Below, in pieces: positions 1 through 6,138 of a DNA stretch of 6,138 nt. Source of the stretch: Candidatus Iainarchaeum sp. (GTDB lineage Archaea > Iainarchaeota > Iainarchaeia > Iainarchaeales > CSSED10-239); assembly GCA_028693335.1 (NCBI GenBank), contig JAQUVR010000039.1, positions 1 through 6,138 of the forward strand, written 5' to 3'. Position 1 is the stretch's first letter, and every line of letters starts with the position of its first letter. The translations under genes were made by a program, and so were the position numbers. The notes below the pieces were generated by a model that worked only from the letters and a program-made list of their open reading frames with translations, had not been told where the DNA came from and searched no databases.

Positions 1-3000
1 TTTCATAAGCATAGATTGCAAATCTAAATTTGCCAATTTTATCAGCACCCTCAAAAGCAGGATCTACTTCTTCTAGTGAATCATCTAAGGTTGGATAGAA
101 CTCTATTTCCTTATAGATCTGATCTCCGTTTTCTAACCTTTCATAGATCTCACTCTCTTTTGGGACTGTAAACATTATTGGTTTTTTTCCTGCTTGTTCT
201 GGCCAAATGGTTTCATTATATTTACATACAACTGTTGCAATATAACTAAAATTAATTTTATTTCTTCCTGGCCATTTTCCATTACATTTTAATTTAAATT
301 CATAATAGTCTCCATTGTCTACAGTTGTTACAACAGAATCACAATCAGAATCTGATAAAGTCTTATACTCACCTGAATCTCCATCAGATTTTCTTTCAAA
401 ATGCGTGTATACATTATATGGTTCCATAAATCCAAGGCCAGTACACTTTGGTATAGATGTATTCATATGTTTATCGGACGCTAATTTACCATTTGTGACC
501 CACACAACTTTTCTATTATAAACATAATTTTTTGAACCGGTGATATCAAAAATATTAATATAGCTTTTCTCTATATTATCATTACCAATAATTATTGTTT
601 TATTTAATCCATCTATTGGCAAATTATAAATTTCTGACACATCTAATACTTTATCAACGATATTTAGATCATAATCACTACCAATTGGCGCAACAATAAA
701 TAAAATTGATGCCGCCAATAAAACAGCACCAGCAATCATCCAACCAACACCAACAAAAACAACTAATCCTGCCAAAGCAGGGATCATACCAACTATAAAA
801 CCACCAGCAAATACCGCTGTTGCTGTACTTCCAATTAATTGAGACCAATCTTCGGTTGAATTTTTCATTTTTGATTTTTCATTAAATAACATTTTACCAA
901 TTGCACTACCATTTGGATCATTATTAATTGGATTCATAAAACTGCTAAATCCAGTATACCCAGAAACATATTCAGCATAATCCCAAGGAGTTGTATTAGT
1001 ATCTTTATTTAACAACTTAACAGTTGGACTTCTGTAAACTCCATCAGTATTCTTTGTAACCTGAATAAATGGATCTTCCATATATAACAAATCTTGAACA
1101 TTAACTTTTAATTTCTTTTCAACAGTAGCACCAGACATTGGTATTCCTTGAACACTTAATGGTTTTATTTTTACTAAAATCACATAACCACCAGGAACCT
1201 CTGGTTTAACAATTCCAACATCTTGAGATGTTTCTCCAATATTAAAAGAAACTTTGTTTTGAGAAACTCCTGTCATGTTTGTATAATTTAATGCTTGACA
1301 TCCAGCATATTCTTTATACTCTCCACAAAAAGTAACTTCAAATCTTGCTTTATCAGAACAATTGTTTTTTAGAGTAAATGTTTTTGGATCACTCATATCA
1401 TCAATTGTTTTTTCAAATGGAATTACTAATTGATTATTTATTTTTTTACCATTTTCAAAAAACTCAATACAATCTGCAATCTGTAAAACAGATATATCTG
1501 TTTTTAGAGCAATTTCTTTTGATCTATTTACATAAGTTAAACCATTATTTGTTTCTATTTGTGCATTAATATAGATCTTTGATTTAATATCTGCAAACTT
1601 AGCACCATAAGAATTATATCTTAATGTTGCTCTATAAATTCTTGGTCTTGGTTCAATATTTGTAATTATTGTTTGATAAGATCCTTCTGATAATGTTACG
1701 CTTTTATCCTCAATTCTTAAAGTATAATTACCATATCTATCTCCATCTTGAGAGATCTTTGCTCTTATATTTTTTAATGTAACCTCTTGTTCATCATTTC
1801 CTTTTGCTACACAATTATTAATAATATTAAAACTAATTTCTTGTTGACCATTGCCAGAAATTATTGTTTGCCATGTATCTGGCGCACCCTCAATAGTTAA
1901 ACAATCATCAACATCAACACCATCTCCAACAGACACTTTAATATTTGTTGGAATCTCAAAATTGAAATTTGAAGTTGAACCAACTCTTGAAACTCTTGCA
2001 GAGATTGAACCAATGACATTTATTGTTTCAAAAAGATCTGTTGTTTGAGTTGGACTTGCTTTAATTAATAATTCTTTTTCTCCATTTGCAGGAATTACAA
2101 AAGAATCATTTACAACTTGTGAATTTAGATTATTTAATGTTAGTGAAATATTTACAAACTCAGAATTTGTAAAAGAAAAATCACTTGGTAAAAATGATTT
2201 TAAAACAAGATCATAGTTTGTTTTATTTTTTAGAGTTACTCTCTCAATCTTTCCATCAACATTTGTTTTGTGAACATTTATAATTAATGGATTTTCTAAA
2301 GTAATTAATGAATTCTCTTTTCTTGCCTCAATAACATCCTCAGACACAATTATTTCTACTGGTGTTGCATAATACATTGCTTTTTGAATTTCAATAATTA
2401 TTTTTTCATTAACATATAATGCTGGCATATTTATTTGAGCAACACCCTCTTGGTTAGTTCTATATATTCCAGATGTTACTGTGTGTGTGTTATTTCCTAT
2501 TTTTTGATAAATATTAACAATACCATCAACAACAGGATTACCTTGACTATCCCTTGCAGAAACAGTTAGAACAAATGGTTCTCTTGGAACAATATTTTGT
2601 GGTTCATAATAAATATTAAATTGATATTGCTTGCTTACTCCAACAGTTATTGCCTTATCATAAACAATTGCTTGATTTGCTAATATTCTGTGATTTAATT
2701 TAGTTGTGCCTATTGATATTGGAGTCAATTCTAGATTTACGGCAAGACGATCATAAACATTTATTTGAGGAATAACTAAATAATCAGTATCCTCTGGAAT
2801 CTTGTGTCTTGGTGTTGATTGTGTTCCTCTTGTTTGATTTATTAATCCTGATAAAGAATATTTTTTTATGTCAATTGCTTGTGCAAGAATTTCAGTAGAA
2901 GAAGAACCGCTTTCAATATTTTTTATTGAAAATCTTGCTTGTGAGTAACTATTGCTTTTTGCATTTGTTATTGTGTAGTCTAACTTATAATCTTTGTTAA

Positions 3001-5398
3001 CCATTGTAGAAATATTTAAAGAAGAAGTTAGATCTTCAGATAAATTTTCAGACAAATCAATTAATTGACCAGATATACAAAAACTATCATCACAAAGTTG
3101 CTCTGCATCAATATAATATATTTTTTGCTCTCTAAAACCAGTATTGTTAGTAGAAGAATATCCTAAGTAAAAGACAGGAACTGCTTGACCTCTTGTTGCA
3201 GTTGATACTTGAACTGGAACTGTTATTTCATAAACACCATTAGGCATAGAACTATAATAAATATTTGCAAGCTTTGCTGGCGTGCCTGATGGGATTGGAG
3301 AATCATAAGCGTTTTCTGATTCATAATAGGTTATTTGTCCAAGATTTTGTGTAATTGGTCTAATAAACACAAAATCATCATTGACATTTTCAGCACCACC
3401 AATAATAAATTTAAATCCAAAGTTTACATTGTTTCCTGTATTTGGAGAAACAACTCTAAATTTAAAGTTATATTGCTTATTTTGTGATAATGATTGTACT
3501 TCTCTATCATTAGTTACATCAAAAACTCCAAGATAATCAATTATTGGCAAATTGTTTTCTTGTGATCTATAAAGTACAATTTCTTTGTTTGTTGTTTGGT
3601 TTTTTAAAATTGGTATTAAGTTTGTATAATAATCTAAATATCCTTCTTTACTTATTTTTAAATAAACAATTTTATCTGCTTTCAATTGTCTAGAATAAGT
3701 GCCAGTATTGGTAGAAGAATCAGAACCTAAAATTGTTCCATCTGAATTTATTATGGTTATTTGTGCATTTGAAACAACATCTGTATATGTGTTTTTAATT
3801 GTTAGATTAATAGTTCCATTTCCAATAATAACATTAACAGATTTATTACTATCTGTTGGAGGTGTGTGATTAAATCTTTCAGATTCTCCATCAACAACAG
3901 ATTTTCTTAATTTAATAAAGTAATTTCCTTTTGGAACATTCTCAAATGTTGCAGATCCATTATTATCTGTAAGTATTGGATCAAATCTTGCATCAATAAA
4001 TCCAGTATTGGCATCATAAATTAACAACGTTGCTCTATTAACAGATAAATTATCTTCATCTTTTGCAACAATATTTATTTTTGCAACATTACTTTCAGTT
4101 ATTTTTTCTAAAAATACAGTGTATTCATTTATATTTGGACTAATTAATCTGGAAGCGTTTATATACTTTTTTGCATTAACAACAATAGTATAATTTTTAT
4201 TATTTTCAATAACAAAATTTACTCCACCAGCAGCATATGCTCTAACATCTTTTGTTAGATTTCCATCTTCTAATATCTTAACAATAATTTCTTCTTCTAG
4301 ATCTATTATTTCTGAAGAGTTAAGTAGATCTTTTACTATGACTTTTATTTCTCTTGTAACAATAGTAGTATCAATAACATCTCCATCATTTGGATTTATG
4401 TTGTTTGCTGTTGCTGAAACTAATATAACACTTTCAGTTAATTTATCTTTTTCTACAGTTATTCTTTGCTCTGCTGATTGATATCTTCCTCTAATATCAT
4501 TAGTAGAAACAATGTATTCTCCAACTTCTAAATCTTTAAAATAAACAGCACCAAATGGTGTTTCTTTTGTTGAAACAGGATTAATTGTGTCTTCTTCTTT
4601 AAATATTCTAACTTCTATTCCATCTAAAATATTTGTTCCACTTTTAACAAATATTTTTGCTTCTCCTTTTCCTAAACTTAATTGTTCACTTAATCTATCA
4701 ATTAACAATTGATTTTGGTTTTCAGATAATAAAATATTTTGTGCAAAATAAGTACTTGATGATGCACTTGCAATAATCTTTCCACAATTAATTGGAACTT
4801 CTAAAGTTATCATTCCTTCTGTTGATTGAGAAGCTGTTGGTGTTATTACTTCATTTGTATTTTCACAAGTTATTGTAAGTGCTACATTTTCTTTTATTAA
4901 TTCTTTTGTTTGGCTATCTATTAACATTAAGCTTTTTGTATATTTTTGTGGTAACTGGTATATTTCTAATGTTATTCTGTGTTCTAATTGATTAGGATCT
5001 ATTGACACAACTGTTCTTTTATAACCAGTTCTTTCTAAAAAAAAATCATATAATTTTTTTGAATCTAATGATATTATTGCTTTACCAGTTCCATCTGTTT
5101 TTATTTCTATATCTCTATTCTCTATAACATCTTTAATTATAAATGAAAAATTAACTAATATATTTCCACTATTATCTGCTAACTTAATAACAACATCATT
5201 ATATGTTGTTTTTTCTTTTATTGATGATAATGGATTAAATATAAAAAATAAAATAATCAAAACAACTAAAATAAAAACAAAAAAAGAAGTTAATGGATTT
5301 TTTTTATCAAGAGGACCAGTTAATGATTTAATTGGTAATCTTTTATTTATTTTTTCTAAAAAGTTTTGATAGTTTTCTGCAAATTTTGACATAGCCAT
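1..5398 (-). CDS. Giant (>=1,799 aa, C-terminus beyond the window) membrane-anchored multi-beta-sandwich surface protein; putative adhesin-like; no named family recognised
   Basis: I scanned plus-strand triplets in the register 2-4, 5-7, and so on. There is no tta/cta/tca (reverse-complement TAA/TAG/TGA) anywhere from 2 to 5458. The first upstream in-frame stop is TAA at 5459-5461. The ATG at 5396-5398 lies 8 nt downstream of TAAGGATGT (5407-5415), an 8/9 match to the canonical Shine-Dalgarno UAAGGAGGU. There is no stop before position 1, so the C-terminus is outside the window. Codon bias is uniform (TTA Leu, AGA Arg, AAA Lys, CCA Pro, GTT Val). Translation starts MAMSKFAENYQNFLEKINKRLPIKSLTGPLDKKNPLTSFFVFILVVLIILFFIFNPLSSIKEK and reaches the window edge at ...GADKIGKFRFAIYAYE. 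It is absent from the supplied ORF track, apparently because it has no stop inside the window. Confidence 0.9.
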   Translation of the reverse strand, partial: MAMSKFAENYQNFLEKINKRLPIKSLTGPLDKKNPLTSFFVFILVVLIILFFIFNPLSSIKEKTTYNDVVIKLADNSGNILVNFSFIIKDVIENRDIEIKTDGTGKAIISLDSKKLYDFFLERTGYKRTVVSIDPNQLEHRITLEIYQLPQKYTKSLMLIDSQTKELIKENVALTITCENTNEVITPTASQSTEGMITLEVPINCGKIIASASSSTYFAQNILLSENQNQLLIDRLSEQLSLGKGEAKIFVKSGTNILDGIEVRIFKEEDTINPVSTKETPFGAVYFKDLEVGEYIVSTNDIRGRYQSAEQRITVEKDKLTESVILVSATANNINPNDGDVIDTTIVTREIKVIVKDLLNSSEIIDLEEEIIVKILEDGNLTKDVRAYAAGGVNFVIENNKNYTIVVNAKKYINASRLISPNINEYTVFLEKITESNVAKINIVAKDEDNLSVNRATLLIYDANTGFIDARFDPILTDNNGSATFENVPKGNYFIKLRKSVVDGESERFNHTPPTDSNKSVNVIIGNGTINLTIKNTYTDVVSNAQITIINSDGTILGSDSSTNTGTYSRQLKADKIVYLKISKEGYLDYYTNLIPILKNQTTNKEIVLYRSQENNLPIIDYLGVFDVTNDREVQSLSQNKQYNFKFRVVSPNTGNNVNFGFKFIIGGAENVNDDFVFIRPITQNLGQITYYESENAYDSPIPSGTPAKLANIYYSSMPNGVYEITVPVQVSTATRGQAVPVFYLGYSSTNNTGFREQKIYYIDAEQLCDDSFCISGQLIDLSENLSEDLTSSLNISTMVNKDYKLDYTITNAKSNSYSQARFSIKNIESGSSSTEILAQAIDIKKYSLSGLINQTRGTQSTPRHKIPEDTDYLVIPQINVYDRLAVNLELTPISIGTTKLNHRILANQAIVYDKAITVGVSKQYQFNIYYEPQNIVPREPFVLTVSARDSQGNPVVDGIVNIYQKIGNNTHTVTSGIYRTNQEGVAQINMPALYVNEKIIIEIQKAMYYATPVEIIVSEDVIEARKENSLITLENPLIINVHKTNVDGKIERVTLKNKTNYDLVLKSFLPSDFSFTNSEFVNISLTLNNLNSQVVNDSFVIPANGEKELLIKASPTQTTDLFETINVIGSISARVSRVGSTSNFNFEIPTNIKVSVGDGVDVDDCLTIEGAPDTWQTIISGNGQQEISFNIINNCVAKGNDEQEVTLKNIRAKISQDGDRYGNYTLRIEDKSVTLSEGSYQTIITNIEPRPRIYRATLRYNSYGAKFADIKSKIYINAQIETNNGLTYVNRSKEIALKTDISVLQIADCIEFFENGKKINNQLVIPFEKTIDDMSDPKTFTLKNNCSDKARFEVTFCGEYKEYAGCQALNYTNMTGVSQNKVSFNIGETSQDVGIVKPEVPGGYVILVKIKPLSVQGIPMSGATVEKKLKVNVQDLLYMEDPFIQVTKNTDGVYRSPTVKLLNKDTNTTPWDYAEYVSGYTGFSSFMNPINNDPNGSAIGKMLFNEKSKMKNSTEDWSQLIGSTATAVFAGGFIVGMIPALAGLVVFVGVGWMIAGAVLLAASILFIVAPIGSDYDLNIVDKVLDVSEIYNLPIDGLNKTIIIGNDNIEKSYINIFDITGSKNYVYNRKVVWVTNGKLASDKHMNTSIPKCTGLGFMEPYNVYTHFERKSDGDSGEYKTLSDSDCDSVVTTVDNGDYYEFKLKCNGKWPGRNKINFSYIATVVCKYNETIWPEQAGKKPIMFTVPKESEIYERLENGDQIYKEIEFYPTLDDSLEEVDPAFEGADKIGKFRFAIYAYE
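2..685 (-). other. Post-hairpin domain of the giant protein (aa 1572-1799+), four cysteines, unassigned fold, continues beyond the window
   Basis: The sequence IGSDYDLNIVDKVLDVSEIYNLPIDGLNKTIIIGNDNIEKSYINIFDITGSKNYVYNRKVVWVTNGKLASDKHMNTSIPKCTGLGFMEPYNVYTHFERKSDGDSGEYKTLSDSDCDSVVTTVDNGDYYEFKLKCNGKWPGRNKINFSYIATVVCKYNETIWPEQAGKKP... has Cys at aa 1652, 1686, 1705 and 1725. It also contains an acidic Asp/Ser-rich loop, SDGDSGEYKTLSDSDCDS. Confidence 0.5.
686..829 (-). other. Charge-free Gly/Ala-rich hydrophobic segment of ~48 aa (aa 1524-1571); probable transmembrane hairpin
   Basis: STATAVFAGGFIVGMIPALAGLVVFVGVGWMIAGAVLLAASILFIVAP contains no charged residue. It is long enough for two helices with a tight VGVGW turn and has small-xxx-small motifs such as G1533-x3-G1537. 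Acidic sequence flanks it on both sides (NSTEDWSQ upstream, GSDYDLNIVD downstream). Because of its GCN/GGN codons it is locally the most GC-rich stretch in the window. Confidence 0.65.
1079..2311 (-). other. Three consecutive ~135-150-aa modules sharing a (V/F)TLKN strand (aa ~1030-1440); CARDB/PapD/ASH-like beta-sandwich candidates
   Basis: VTLKN occurs at aa 1054-1058 (nt 2225-2239), VTLKN at aa 1206-1210 (nt 1769-1783) and FTLKN at aa 1341-1345 (nt 1364-1378). Spacing is 152 and 135 aa. Each motif sits in a context of the form 'x-(V/F)-T-L-K-N-x-(polar)3-5-hydrophobic strand', for example ERVTLKNKTNYDLVLKS and KTFTLKNNCSDKARFEVTF. That is the hallmark first-strand motif of CARDB / choice-of-anchor-D / ASH-type folds. 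Modules 2 and 3 carry 2 and 4 cysteines respectively. Confidence 0.45.
2339..2638 (-). other. Bacterial-Ig-like (Big/invasin-type) beta-sandwich module (aa ~921-1020)
   Basis: The sequence VSKQYQFNIYYEPQNIVPREPFVLTVSARDSQGNPVVDGIVNIYQKIGNNTHTVTSGIYRTNQEGVAQINMPALYVNEKIIIEIQKAMYYATPVEIIVSE contains the pattern 'x-L-T-V-S-A-x-D-x-x-G-N-P-V-x-x-x-x-V' plus 'T-N-x-x-G-V-A'. That pattern resembles Big_1-type domains. Recognised by eye only. Confidence 0.45.
3563..5209 (-). other. Tandem array of about six divergent carboxypeptidase-regulatory-like / Ig-like beta-sandwich modules (aa ~64-612)
   Basis: Units of about 70-90 aa recur. Each has alternating-hydrophobic strands, a central T-(D/N/K)-x-x-G-x-hydrophobic turn and a distal G-x-Y-hydrophobic strand. 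Examples: TDGTGKAIISL (aa 101-111); TKETPFGAVYFKDLEVGEYIVST (278-299); AGGVNFVIENNKNYTIVVNAKKY (390-412); TDNNGSATFENVPKGNYFIKL (477-497); TNTGTYSRQLKADKIVYLKISKEGY (563-587). This pattern is typical of CarboxypepD_reg-type domains. The assignment rests on motif recognition only, and there is no nucleotide-level repetition. Confidence 0.5.
5231..5293 (-). other. N-terminal signal-anchor transmembrane helix of the giant protein (aa 36-56)
   Basis: LTSFFVFILVVLIILFFIFNP is 21 uncharged, strongly hydrophobic residues. It follows a 35-aa tail containing 7 Lys/Arg (KINKRLPIKS...DKKNP). By the positive-inside rule the N-terminus is cytoplasmic and the rest of the protein is external. I see no signal-peptidase or pilin-type cleavage motif. 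Confidence 0.7.
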
Positions 5399-5406
5399 AA
5401 TTAATA

Positions 5407-5415
5407 ACATCCTTA
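5407..5415 (-). promoter_or_regulatory. Shine-Dalgarno ribosome-binding site of the giant gene
   Basis: The minus strand reads TAAGGATGT, matching UAAGGAGGU at 8 of 9 positions. An 8-nt spacer (TATTAATT) separates it from ATG 5398. The ATG embedded in this motif (5408-5410) is in frame, but it is more likely part of the SD than a start codon. Confidence 0.6.
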
Positions 5416-5416
5416 A

Positions 5417-5429
5417 ATATATATATATA
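5417..5429. repeat. (AT)6A dinucleotide repeat between the promoter candidate and the SD
   Basis: atatatatatata is read directly at 5417-5429, which is 19-31 nt upstream of ATG 5398. Confidence 0.8.
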
Positions 5430-5444
5430 ATTTTTAAAGATAAA

Positions 5445-5473
5445 AAGATATTTAAAGGTTACTAATCAATCAA
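5445..5473 (-). promoter_or_regulatory. Candidate promoter of the giant gene (readable as bacterial -35/-10 or as an archaeal TATA box)
   Basis: The minus strand reads TTGATT (5468-5473), a 17-nt spacer, then TATCTT (5445-5450), which resembles a sigma70-type promoter. The same stretch contains TTTAAATA (5449-5456), matching the archaeal TATA consensus TTTAWATA. That box would place a transcription start near 5424-5428, upstream of the SD. I cannot tell which model applies, and AT-rich spacers produce such matches easily. Confidence 0.35.
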
Positions 5474-5477
5474 AGTT

Positions 5478-5507
5478 AAAAAATTAAGAAATAGAAAAAA
5501 AAAGAAA
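5478..5507 (-). terminator. T-tract terminator candidate for the upstream gene (no convincing hairpin)
   Basis: Directly after the TAA stop, the minus strand reads TTTCTTTTTTTTTCTATTTCTTAATTTTTT, which contains a T9 run and a T6 run. I could not find a GC-containing stem. The signal therefore looks more like archaeal oligo-T termination than a classical bacterial intrinsic terminator. Confidence 0.35.
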
Positions 5508-6138
5508 TTAGTTTTTAATACAGCCTTCTGTTTCGCTATCTAATCTCTTTATTACTTCATTTGTTAAATCATCAGAAATTGCTTTAGGATTATAATAAAC
5601 TGATAATTTTGTTGCACTTGGTGAAACACATGCTTTTTTTTCTGATACTAAATTATATATGTCTTTTAAAGATTTAATATCATTTACTAAAGCATTCCTA
5701 AGTTCAACACTTTCTGATGCACTCATTAATGATACTTGTTGATTTGTGGATGATCTTTGACTTAAAATATAGAAATATGCTTCGTCATCTTTTGAATCAA
5801 TTACAAGTCTACTAATACCATCAACTGCTTGACCTGTTTTATAGTTTGTTGGTGTGTAAAATATTGTATATAACCAAACATTACCATATCTATTAATCTC
5901 TTCCTTTGGCCATTCAACACCATAACTAAATCCTTGGCTTTGTGTTGTTGGTGCTAATCTTGATTCAGTTGCAACAATATCTCTTGTTCCTAAATATCTT
6001 TCAAGTTGTGGAACTCCTTCAAAGTCTCTACAATTTGCAAAACCTGTCCAATAGGTTAAAACATTTCCAGTGTTTGCAATTATTCCGCCTTCGTTTGGTG
6101 GAGATCCAAGTGATAGTTTGTAGAATGCAAGTGCATTA
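5508..6138 (-). CDS. Hypothetical protein, C-terminal >=209 aa (N-terminus beyond the window); family not recognised
   Basis: The frame of the listed 72-aa ORF (5508..5726) stays open upstream of its ATG all the way to 6138, with no tta/cta/tca in the register 5511-5513 ... 6135-6137. Translation: ...NALAFYKLSLGSPPNEGGIIANTGNVLTYWTGFANCRDFEGVPQLERYLGTRDIVATESRLAPTTQSQGFSYGVEWPKEEINRYGNVWLYTIFYTPTNYKTGQAVDGISRLVIDSKDDEAYFYILSQRSSTNQQVSLMSASESVELRNALVNDIKSLKDIYNLVSEKKACVSPSATKLSVYYNPKAISDDLTNEVIKRLDSETEGCIKN*. The TAA stop is at 5508-5510. No SD-like motif precedes the internal ATG at 5726. Codon bias matches the neighbouring gene. Confidence 0.8.
   Translation of the reverse strand, partial: NALAFYKLSLGSPPNEGGIIANTGNVLTYWTGFANCRDFEGVPQLERYLGTRDIVATESRLAPTTQSQGFSYGVEWPKEEINRYGNVWLYTIFYTPTNYKTGQAVDGISRLVIDSKDDEAYFYILSQRSSTNQQVSLMSASESVELRNALVNDIKSLKDIYNLVSEKKACVSPSATKLSVYYNPKAISDDLTNEVIKRLDSETEGCIKN

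Follow-up and report, generated by a model that had tools for sequence, protein, structure and literature searches.

The window, meaning the whole 6,138 bp stretch of Candidatus Iainarchaeum sp. DNA that was analysed, contains parts of two genes, and all features described below lie on the minus strand. That strand carries the sole long ORF of the window. The ORF is open from position 5458 to base 2, where it reaches the window edge still open, and has in-frame ATG codons at 5410, 5398 and 5392. Counted from 5410, the start used for all residue numbers here, the window encodes 1,803 aa (2..5410). The gene call of a homologue with 92% identity to the ORF, P0001 (2,518 aa), begins at the equivalent of 5398 (MAMSKF). 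Going by P0001 the ORF is judged to continue for about 715 aa beyond the window, which gives a full protein of about 2,520 aa and rules out an ORF that ends just past the window as a conventional C-terminal anchor, a case raised in the initial annotation. Exact 48-mer DNA searches of viral, genome and metagenome contigs gave no contig from which the window could be extended. The upstream gene is represented by its 3' end of 209 aa (5511..6137, stop codon 5508-5510). This fragment is 98% identical to the neighbour gene in the near-identical relative L001 and matches the 3' end of a gene that is syntenic with those of 964-1,009-aa proteins. The tail of this fragment has homology with the subdomain at the very C-terminus of the giant protein itself (31% identity, E = 2e-11, P0001 aa 2353-2497).

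The N-terminal cytoplasmic tail of the giant protein (aa 1-38, 5297..5410) is K/R-rich directly before the anchor (KINKRLPIKSLTGPLDKKN); across the family the 15 residues preceding the anchor contain a mean of 3.0 K+R. The signal-anchor helix follows (aa 39-62, PLTSFFVFILVVLIILFFIFNPLS, 5225..5296) and has an insertion energy of -6.1 kcal/mol on a crude scale, in agreement with the signal anchor proposed earlier. In the family this helix repeatedly opens with related motifs (PLTSFF, [VI]PSF). The insertion energies were obtained with a Hessa-type scale, a position-independent approximation whose calibration comes from the eukaryotic ER and not from archaeal membranes. The external stalk region extends from aa 63 to about aa 1500 (911..5224). 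Two Pfam matches in the stalk are above cut-off, prealbumin-like SpaA (aa 258-325) and CarboxypepD_reg (aa 533-613), and several Ig-like or macroglobulin-like ones (Big_1, MG4, Invasin_D3) are below it. The beta-sandwich character that had been assigned to a region of about 1,470 aa is thus established for a part of it only, the rest being below cut-off or unmatched.

Positions 686-829 (minus strand) encode the 48 residues STATAVFAGGFIVGMIPALAGLVVFVGVGWMIAGAVLLAASILFIVAP, which correspond to aa 1528-1575. The same stretch was given as aa 1524-1571 in the initial annotation, a difference caused by the choice of start codon, and the composition described there is found again: there is no D, E, K or R, and G+A+V+I make up 62.5% of the stretch vs 28% of the whole protein. 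The full charge-free hydrophobic element containing it comprises 57 aa (aa 1522-1578, 677..847), as against a mean longest charge-free run of 26 aa in shuffles of the same protein. The element is situated about 60% along the chain of about 2,520 aa. By homology about 940 residues, forming several domains, lie downstream of it, so the idea of a protein pinned to the membrane at both ends is not upheld.

The element can be divided into two legs and a turn. The first leg (aa 1530-1553, ATAVFAGGFIVGMIPALAGLVVFV, 752..823) is Gly/Ala-rich, about 24 aa long and of marginal hydrophobicity, with an insertion energy of about +0.8 to +1.2 kcal/mol on the crude Hessa-type, eukaryotic ER-calibrated scale. 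It evolves fast, with 47% identity to P0001 and a 2-aa indel. The putative turn GVGW (aa 1554-1557, 740..751) is without positive charge, and G-P-x-G-W is found at this site in most members of the clade. In other subfamilies C-P-P-C-type motifs separate the two hydrophobic stretches of the element. The second leg (aa 1557-1575, WMIAGAVLLAASILFIVAP, 686..742) is 18-19 aa long, is predicted to be helical with low pLDDT, and has, taken as GW plus 18 aa, an insertion energy of about -1.7 kcal/mol on the same crude Hessa-type, eukaryotic ER-calibrated scale. By this estimate leg 2 has the hydrophobicity needed for a membrane span, and leg 1 is marginal. The length of leg 2 is nearly constant in the clade (about 18 aa), that of leg 1 varies, and leg 2 has a conserved G-W-x-x-x-G pattern. 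The dN/dS ratio is 0.07 for leg 2 (at dS of about 0.5) and 0.47 for leg 1 together with the linker; judged by codon comparison, leg 2 is under strong purifying selection.

In the AlphaFold models the pLDDT of the element is 26-48. Leg 2 is the only helix of the element in the first model, and the larger model, built from a 15-sequence alignment, has a helix, a break at FVGV and a second helix, at pLDDT <50. The pTM of the larger model, 0.71, is compatible with flanks that may pack together, the element leaving and re-entering one domain. Of the two helices suggested earlier, the second is, by its hydrophobicity, clearly able to span a membrane; the first is marginal, and AlphaFold confidence is low throughout the element.

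C-terminal sorting signals occupy the very end of the chain and consist, in this order, of a signature motif, a hydrophobic helix and a short basic tail. A signal of this kind (LPXTG/sortase; PGF-CTERM or PEF-CTERM/archaeosortase) was considered and rejected. There is no LPxTG, PGF or PEF motif in the window ORF or P0001, the chain goes on for some 940 residues beyond the element, the flank downstream of it is acidic, and none of the full-length homologues has a C-terminal hydrophobic or membrane helix. Profile searches against Pfam and NCBIfam did not match the element to any known sorting or anchor family. NCBIfam gave nothing for the window ORF, and for P0001, P0003 and P0010 only weak matches far under cut-off, none of them to a sorting-signal model. 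The earlier view of an internal element with no sorting motif and no basic tail thus stands. The window element is also unmatched by the Gly-zipper families of Pfam (PF13488, PF13441), the best match being DUF4064 (E = 0.057, 14 bits vs a cut-off of 32).

The segment just after the 48-residue stretch is acidic rather than basic (IGSDYDLNIVDK). The acidic flank after the element (IGSDYDLNIVDKVLD, 641..685) has a clade-conserved [AT]P-x-F-x-[SN]-D-Y pattern. In family-wide means, the net charge over the 15 aa that follow the element is -3.0, with 0.95 K+R, and over the 15 aa that precede it -1.0, with 1.6 K+R. The density of N-glycosylation sequons, 1.9 per 100 aa before the element vs 2.2 after it, was judged uninformative, the proteome being Asn-rich. 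A beta-sandwich domain follows the flank (aa 1579-1803, 2..676) and ends almost exactly at the window edge. Its pLDDT is 76-92, with a dip to 51-58 at a window-specific insert. Four Cys in this domain are invariant in an alignment of 22 homologues (aa 1656, 1690, 1709 and 1729; codons 443-445, 341-343, 284-286 and 224-226). The Cys-bearing domain noticed in the initial annotation is thereby supported, but it is only the first of several domains downstream. For this domain Foldseek gave generic beta-sandwich folds only, none at E <= 0.001.

A hypervariable or recombined block (289..888) spans the element together with the larger part of the downstream domain. Within the block the nucleotide identity to L001 is 62-77%, vs about 90-100% upstream. 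The divergence rises sharply from about aa 1500, just ahead of the element, and this step suggests a module boundary. The invariant Cys of the downstream domain and its variability from strain to strain suit an exposed, external domain. Both flanks of the element look external, since they are K/R-poor and acidic, the four invariant Cys lie downstream, and the flanking domains are intact where the element is absent.

DPANN archaea have tiny genomes, of which several percent are spent on clusters of giant surface-protein genes. By homology the window protein belongs to an uncharacterised family, newly defined here, that is all but confined to Iainarchaeota (Diapherotrites, DPANN). Its members begin with a signal anchor, continue with a beta-sandwich stalk and end in a conserved module of about 940 aa that had not been described before and has a C-D-A-T-Q motif; their genes lie in a conserved cluster of large genes. 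For the window protein itself the C-D-A-T-Q module is inferred from P0001 (92% identity), the window stopping just before it. An exhaustive HMMER search of a library of 1.84 billion proteins gave 70 family representatives. A word-index search with only the C-terminal 400 aa missed the family, which was recovered by the whole-ORF and exhaustive HMMER searches. The full-length collinear homologues have 2,337-2,518 aa, E values of 0 to 1e-42 and from 92% down to about 20% identity. Nearly all of the 72 genome loci are labelled Iainarchaeum, Diapherotrites, Forterrea or unclassified archaeon, the Forterrea orthologue being P0008 at locus L015. The genes are located in conserved clusters of giant surface-protein genes, in which the neighbour genes have no informative Pfam domains.

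No described family appears to share the layout of the protein, as had been supposed from the sequence of the window: Pfam, NCBIfam, a PDB sequence search and Foldseek gave nothing specific. The C-terminal module has no match in Pfam or NCBIfam, and when the C-terminal alignment was searched as a profile against PDB the matches were at chance level. In Foldseek searches (both models on PDB, the larger one also on BFVD) the matches were to generic folds of beta-sandwich, adhesin and phage-tail type with low TM-scores, the best being MSCRAMM adhesins and integrin leg domains. The nearest known counterparts are giant adhesins with Ig-like repeats on bacterial and archaeal surfaces (MSCRAMM/SpaA-type and Big_1/invasin-type stalks, and the 'large extracellular proteins' of Ca. 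Forterrea multitransposorum). These share their size with the window family, as well as beta-sandwich domains in series (prealbumin-like, CarboxypepD_reg and Ig-like), one membrane anchor placed at one end, and distal parts that are hypervariable. The window family differs in that the anchor is an N-terminal signal anchor, not a C-terminal LPXTG/PGF signal, and in the addition of the unmatched C-terminal module and of the internal hydrophobic loop at the junction of stalk and head.

The element is no constant component of the architecture: it is a variable insert at a fixed site, ranging from 0 to about 100 aa across the family. In the closest distinct orthologues, the syntenic P0002 and P0003 (69-72% identity; P0003 is present on nine contigs) the whole element is missing, with the flanks conserved, the ORF intact and the gene order the same. 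Altogether 66 of 122 long family members are without the element. A hydrophobic element at a fixed site is thus gained, lost and reshaped among close relatives, beside a hypervariable domain. Orthologues with and without it could serve as a natural experiment on how a translocon handles a marginal, putative hairpin between two very large external domains. The 56 elements present were classified by membrane-spanning windows on the crude scale; two such windows were found in three, one in 21 and none in 32. As only 3 of the 56 have two spanning windows, a constitutive transmembrane hairpin is not the function of all homologous elements.

The first alternative to be considered is that leg 2 alone is a single-pass transmembrane helix, which would place the stalk outside and the module of about 940 aa in the cytoplasm, as in a receptor. 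Leg 2 is the only clearly membrane-spanning part of the element and its sole helix in the first AlphaFold model, and the 21 family members with exactly one strongly hydrophobic window fit such an arrangement. The same C-terminal module is, however, kept without an internal hydrophobic segment in orthologues and many paralogues (the 66 of 122 long members mentioned above), so that a single-pass helix would require the module to work on both sides of the membrane. A single-pass helix with the C-terminus inside is expected to have a basic downstream flank; the flank found is acidic and K/R-poor. The invariant Cys of the downstream domain, and a short secreted paralogue that has the same module behind a signal-peptide-like N-terminus, also argue against a cytoplasmic module. 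The single-pass arrangement is accordingly regarded as very improbable. With conserved flanks in the element-free orthologues, and with no element in 66 of the 122 long members, the C-terminal module is probably on the same side as the stalk, after an even number of membrane crossings or none.

The element could also be a linker, hydrophobic or of low complexity, that is buried in an oligomer or in a contact between proteins, or else a site of internal processing, with no lasting role as a membrane anchor. The processing site might take the form of an intramembrane protease site or of a signal-peptide relic of a gene fusion. The wide length range, the Ala/Thr/Gly low-complexity runs of some variants (e.g. 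L016), the module boundary hinted at by the divergence near aa 1500 and the signal-peptide-like N-terminus of short paralogues would all agree with such an origin. The strong, sequence-specific purifying selection on leg 2 (dN/dS 0.07) and its G-W-x-x-x-G pattern do not, and the signal peptidase -3/-1 pattern after leg 2 is unconserved in the alignment as judged by eye, with no sign of cleavage. A linker or processing site is therefore considered improbable. Two specific forms were considered. Leg 2 as a cleaved internal signal peptide was rejected as a conserved feature, since the -3/-1 small residues by eye fit the window (P-I-G-S|D) and not most homologues. A signal-peptide relic of a fused head-module gene is not supported by BLAST, which aligns the short paralogue to the CDATQ module only, the signal peptide not being at the position of the element.

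The explanation tentatively favoured is that the element forms an out-in-out helical hairpin, or a re-entrant tether, in the cell's own membrane. A lineage-variable hydrophobic loop at a fixed site would join the stalk to the conserved C-terminal module of about 940 aa and enter the producer's own membrane during Sec-type translocation as a tight hairpin, with leg 1 (aa ~1530-1553), the turn G-V-G-W and leg 2 (W1557-P1575). Both flanking domains would remain outside the cell, and the loop would be a second membrane tether that keeps the C-terminal module close to the membrane. What the data show is the segment, its internal position, its gain and loss among orthologues, the outside-like flanks and the purifying selection on leg 2; that the loop is in a membrane, that leg 1 spans it, that the membrane is the cell's own and that the function is tethering are inferred. 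The element-free orthologues, the flank charges and the invariant Cys favour flanks on one external side, as a two-helix hairpin requires, and with it the earlier proposal that the domain after the element is again external. The turn-promoting residues between the two hydrophobic stretches, the near-constant length and low dN/dS of leg 2 and the helix-break-helix prediction also speak for a hairpin; the marginal leg 1, the lack of positive charge in the turn and the very low pLDDT speak against it. By established work on membrane insertion, a segment with the hydrophobicity of leg 2 should partition from the translocon into the membrane. If it does so, the downstream chain stays outside only if leg 2 pairs with the preceding leg. 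If the loop is only a second tether, it is a modest curiosity of membrane topology. A hairpin would mean that a stalk of about 1,470 aa comes back to its own membrane, which is a geometric oddity.

Helical hairpins are known from insertion studies of model proteins, in which a long hydrophobic stretch is split by a Pro/Gly turn, and hairpin proteins with a Gly-rich helix include subunit c of ATP synthase. The window element resembles these in a run of about 45-57 uncharged residues whose two hydrophobic stretches are separated by Gly/Pro/Trp or CPPC, in the combination of one Gly/Ala-rich leg with small-xxx-small spacing and one more hydrophobic leg, and in ends that are probably on the same side. 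It differs in that the putative hairpin lies between two very large external regions, the turn is uncharged, leg 1 is marginal, and orthologues dispense with the element.

A further possibility, on the unlikely side, is a membrane-active external loop comparable to glycine zippers and fusion loops, which would be translocated together with its flanks without stable integration in its own cell's membrane, and would then insert into or rest on another membrane, that of a host or partner cell, or rest on the outer face of its own. Such a membrane-active loop would, at the same low likelihood, help the head module to engage a target. A re-entrant loop, or one that inserts into a target membrane, had been named as a speculative alternative in the initial annotation, and either may apply. 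The 32 of 56 homologous elements that are too rich in Gly/Ala/Thr/Ser for a transmembrane helix on the crude scale agree with this. One subfamily has 24-aa elements such as FFGILGTYAALGAIAGGLLGGIFG, located exactly 176-178 aa upstream of the CDAxQ motif, with sub-threshold matches to Pfam Gly-zipper_Omp (E = 0.0025, 18.2 bits vs a cut-off of 25). Over the elements of other subfamilies the Gly-zipper profiles reached 18.2 and 15.6 bits, under cut-offs of 25 and 28.9. Conserved Cys stand on both sides of the loop in 18 of 123 members (C-x-W ... D-P-C), an arrangement reminiscent of those viral fusion proteins whose internal fusion loop is stapled by a disulfide. A Gly-rich motif (GLNPIVHGVLAGAFS) likewise precedes this C-terminal module in the short secreted paralogue, and the block around the element is hypervariable between strains. 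The 'large extracellular proteins' of the Forterrea genome are predicted to mediate interaction with other organisms (PMC5905446), which counts for an external loop, but host association is not established for most Iainarchaeota (PMC5905446), which counts against it. Leg 2 of the window, at about -1.7 kcal/mol on the crude scale, should not pass the translocon freely. An exposed hydrophobic loop of 57 aa has no predicted shielding and is unpacked in AlphaFold, Foldseek found no likeness to any fusion protein or pore-forming toxin, and the close orthologues P0002 and P0003 manage without the element.

Fusion proteins are recognized by three features: an ectodomain of characteristic fold (a coiled-coil trimer or the three-domain fold of class II), a fusion loop or peptide, and a transmembrane helix at the C-terminus. 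A viral or cellular fusion protein (class I, II or III; fusexins) was rejected, given the generic folds in the Foldseek searches of PDB and BFVD and the homologues without a C-terminal transmembrane helix. The element is similar to viral fusion loops or peptides and to glycine-zipper segments in being uncharged, Gly/Ala-rich and internal in a large ectodomain, with flanking Cys in some subfamilies; the weak, sub-threshold matches to Gly-zipper_Omp and Gly-zipper_YMGG concern only the elements of other subfamilies. In contrast to viral fusion proteins the flanks of the window element are beta-sandwich, not coiled-coil or class II/III folds, with no structural similarity by Foldseek, and unlike fusion loops the element is hydrophobic enough for integration into its own membrane. 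The hydrophobic hairpins of the colicin pore domain and the diphtheria toxin T domain are shielded within an amphipathic helical bundle. The window element is similar to such pore-forming toxin hairpins in that it may form an uncharged two-helix hairpin of about 40 residues able to insert into a target membrane; the window protein has no predicted helical bundle and no Pfam or Foldseek match to these toxins.

The most far-reaching form of an external loop is that it and its glycine-zipper-like and CPPC counterparts are used by a DPANN archaeon to insert into or fuse with the membrane of a partner cell, as an archaeal cell-cell contact or fusion element unrelated to known fusion proteins. This is rated as improbable. 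If the loop does act on the membrane of another cell, it would give a concrete, testable molecular handle on contact between DPANN archaea and their hosts. A device of this kind would adjoin a hypervariable domain on the head of a stalk of about 1,500 aa.

The window encodes part of a giant surface protein of the Ig-repeat kind, which has an unusual hydrophobic loop within its chain and a head module that has not been described before. The window (G+C about 28%) contains a sole long ORF, found on the minus strand from 5458 down to base 2 and open at the window edge. In-frame ATGs at 5410, 5398 and 5392 leave a margin of up to 6 codons for the true start; the called gene start of a 92% identical homologue is the equivalent of 5398 (MAMSKF). 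The single N-terminal signal anchor proposed in the initial annotation was confirmed at aa 39-62, behind a K/R-rich segment, with an insertion energy of -6.1 kcal/mol on a crude scale of the Hessa type that takes no account of residue position. At the start of this helix (window 5225-5310, aa ~34-62) the motif D-K-K-N-P-L-T-S-F-F is found in the window's clade and [VI]-[VIF]-P-S-F in most other family members. These shared motifs may represent a specific recognition or processing signal.

The core of the internal element, STATAVFAGGFIVGMIPALAGLVVFVGVGWMIAGAVLLAASILFIVAP, is encoded at 686-829 on the minus strand (aa 1528-1575, counted from the ATG at 5410). The uncharged, Gly/Ala/Val/Ile-rich character ascribed to it holds: there is no charged residue, G+A+V+I make up 62.5% compared with 28% in the whole protein, and the surrounding charge-free run is 57 aa, compared with a mean longest run of 26 in the shuffled protein.

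A search with the whole ORF gave 11 collinear homologues with 92% to ~20% identity, nearly all 2,337-2,518 aa long, and the element is present or lost among them. In the word-index protein search used, a query with the C-terminal 400 aa missed the 92% identical homologue that the whole-ORF query found, a false negative, and a negative outcome of this search is not readable as absence. The 92% identical homologue, P0001, has 2,518 aa; the giant protein therefore continues for ~715 residues beyond the window, rather than ending just past it as a C-terminal anchor, and ~940 residues follow the element. A hydrophobic helix at the C-terminus is lacking in all homologues, LPxTG, PGF and PEF motifs are absent from the protein, and none of the NCBIfam models for sorting signals matches. 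The element is thus not a conventional C-terminal anchor or sorting signal, as had been argued from the sequence.

Judged from the homologues, the site of the element is fixed, but the insert found there varies. Members of the window's clade have an uncharged Gly/Ala/Thr-rich segment, whose length ranges from ~13 to over 60 aa, a turn-like G-P-x-G-W (in the window GVGW), a hydrophobic stretch of near-constant length (~18 aa) with a G-W-x-x-x-G pattern and, after this second hydrophobic stretch, [AT]P-x-F-x-[SN]-D-Y. Two syntenic orthologues with 69-72% identity to the window protein (P0002 and P0003, the latter found on 9 contigs) have lost essentially the whole element although their flanks are conserved and the reading frame is unbroken, and the P0021 fragment also lacks it. 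Among 107 ORFs bearing the CDAxQ motif of the head module, a hydrophobic Gly/Ala-rich element recurs ~177-300 aa upstream of the motif in three types: GP-x-GW, CPPC/CVPC/CLPC between two hydrophobic stretches, and a 24-aa glycine-zipper-like form (e.g. FFGILGTYAALGAIAGGLLGGIFG). The end of the latter is always 176-178 aa before CDAxQ (L028, L066, L069, L070, L074, L044, L038 and other loci), and its score with Pfam Gly-zipper_Omp is 18.2 bits, below the cut-off of 25. Among 122 distinct long members, 66 have no element. A conserved C-x-W and D-P-C enclose the loop in 18 of 123, the content being hydrophobic or, in some members, charged. Variants of the C-P-P-C type in other subfamilies are CVPC, CLPC, CPAC, CGPPC and CPVC (L021, L022, L027, L029, L030, L033, L035, L051, L054, L068). 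These and the bracketing Cys could provide a disulfide or metal binding at the turn or loop base. By this comparison the window's element is one variant of a family-wide, dispensable variable loop. The initial annotation was right in what it observed, and its main interpretation is supported in part. The protein goes beyond the proposed layout of anchor, giant beta-sandwich stalk, Gly-rich hairpin and Cys domain, with a dispensable element at ~60% of roughly 2,520 aa.

The C-terminal module is kept in many members without an internal hydrophobic segment and is therefore on the same side as the stalk, so that the element crosses the membrane twice or not at all. The charges of the flanks agree with this placement: the mean net charge is -3.0 (K+R 0.95) in the 15 residues after the element and -1.0 (K+R 1.6) in the 15 before it, and K+R is 3.0 where the N-terminal anchor faces the cytoplasm. 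Four invariant Cys are present in the domain that comes next. A receptor-like topology with a single pass is very improbable, given the gain-and-loss pattern of the element, the acidic downstream flank and the Cys of the downstream domain.

Leg 2 (aa 1557-1575) has an insertion energy of about -1.7 kcal/mol on the same crude scale. In translocon-mediated insertion a segment of this hydrophobicity should partition into the membrane, and long hydrophobic stretches with a central Pro/Gly insert as helical hairpins. With leg 2 in the membrane and the downstream chain outside, the preceding leg must have brought the chain in, and an out-in-out hairpin is thus the most economical arrangement for the window's version; leg 1 (aa ~1530-1553) would take the chain in and leg 2 would lead it back out. 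Tethering to the membrane of the cell itself, by a hairpin or a re-entrant loop, is tentatively favoured as the best fit to the window sequence. Of the hairpin with external flanks first proposed, the location of both flanks on one side is supported (module kept without the element, flank charges, Cys), but leg 1 is marginal, at about +0.8 to +1.2 kcal/mol on that crude scale. The main weakness of the favoured reading lies in the homologous elements, most of which are too rich in Gly/Ala/Thr for transmembrane helices: on a crude scale 32 of 56 are weak, 21 have one membrane-competent window and 3 have two. This continuum of elements, and a short secreted paralogue in which the module is likewise preceded by a Gly-rich motif, leave room for a common function in membrane association or activity of the head, possibly on a partner's membrane, a reading that we consider rather unlikely. 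The significance of the loop is moderate, and would rise sharply if it proved to act on another cell's membrane.

In a model of window aa 1440-1803 (mean pLDDT 76, pTM 0.71) the element has pLDDT below 50; it is helical over aa 1543-1551 and 1556-1572 and broken at FVGV. That the pTM is high although 58 residues form an unstructured insert may mean that the two segments flanking the element pack against each other. In P0001 the C-terminal 1,139 aa, modelled from a 15-sequence alignment, form a chain of mainly beta domains (mean pLDDT 75), the element having pLDDT 26-40 and a helix at leg 2 only. Foldseek gave only generic beta-sandwich relatives with low TM-scores (MSCRAMM adhesins, integrin leg domains, phage tail proteins), no significant match for the domain after the element, and no fusion-protein or pore-forming fold.

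Compared with contig L001, a near-identical relative, nucleotide identity is ~90-100% over 1039-6138, mostly at least 94%, falls to 62-77% across 289-888 (aa ~1505-1710), a block that holds the element and the greater part of the next domain, and returns to 85% at 139-288. The dS rises from 0.13 (aa 1-1500) to ~0.6 (aa 1501-1803), and this jump at ~aa 1500 points to a recombined or long-diverged cassette; the block of low identity has the look of one that is recombined or hypervariable. Recombination has been reported for Forterrea, which such a cassette fits (PMC5905446). Within the block dN/dS, from few codons in each part, is 0.07 in leg 2, 0.47 in leg 1 and the linker and 0.39 in the first part of the following domain. 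Leg 2 is thus constrained in sequence beyond mere hydrophobicity, and leg 1 is, by the same few codons, free to vary provided that it is uncharged. That the element is a buried linker or a processing site is improbable in view of the selection on leg 2 and of the failed test of the element as a relic signal peptide. A window-specific insert of ~12 aa lies within KSDGDSGEYKTLS, near aa 1676-1688, and is lacking in P0001.

HMMER, run exhaustively against 1.84 billion representatives, found 70 family members, many of 2,300-2,600 aa. A scan of one genome per species found 72 loci, some of them in the complete Ca. Forterrea multitransposorum and AR10 genomes; nearly all carry the label Candidatus Iainarchaeum, Diapherotrites or unclassified archaeon. 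L056 and L070 come from MAGs labelled 'Thaumarchaeota archaeon' and 'Chloroflexi bacterium'; mis-binning of these contigs is more probable than a true occurrence outside Iainarchaeota. Pfam matches are confined to the stalk domains (CarboxypepD_reg, SpaA, Big_1, SdrD_B, MG-like); the C-terminal 940 aa have no Pfam, NCBIfam or PDB sequence match, and no published description of the family or of the internal hydrophobic element was found.

In Iainarchaeota genomes the family genes are found in a conserved, co-oriented cluster encoding a 964-1,009-aa protein with a mostly signal-peptide-like N-terminus, the giant protein (~2,480 aa), two proteins that in the closer relatives have roughly 600-800 aa and a signal-peptide-like N-terminus (in Forterrea their place is taken by proteins of 120 and 809 aa), a second giant of ~2,150-2,220 aa and, upstream, additional giant genes. 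No informative Pfam domain was found in the cluster neighbours. In L002 the giant and large secreted protein genes exceed 11,000 codons; the cluster is also conserved in L003, L015 and other loci among L005-L076, and two ORFs with the CDAxQ module per locus are frequent. In the window the 3' end of the upstream gene lies at 5511-6137 (stop at 5508-5510), on the minus strand like the giant ORF. It is 98% identical to the 3' end of the upstream gene of L001, the syntenic counterpart of the genes for the 964-1,009-aa proteins elsewhere. The terminal part of the protein fragment encoded in the window shows homology to the giant protein's last subdomain (31% identity, E = 2e-11). The short 964-1,009-aa proteins (e.g. 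L002:6996-9896 and L015:3005-5899) can be aligned to the giant protein's CDATQ head module and have their own Gly-rich motif, GLNPIVHGVLAGAFS, shortly past an N-terminus that resembles a signal peptide in three of four proteins examined.
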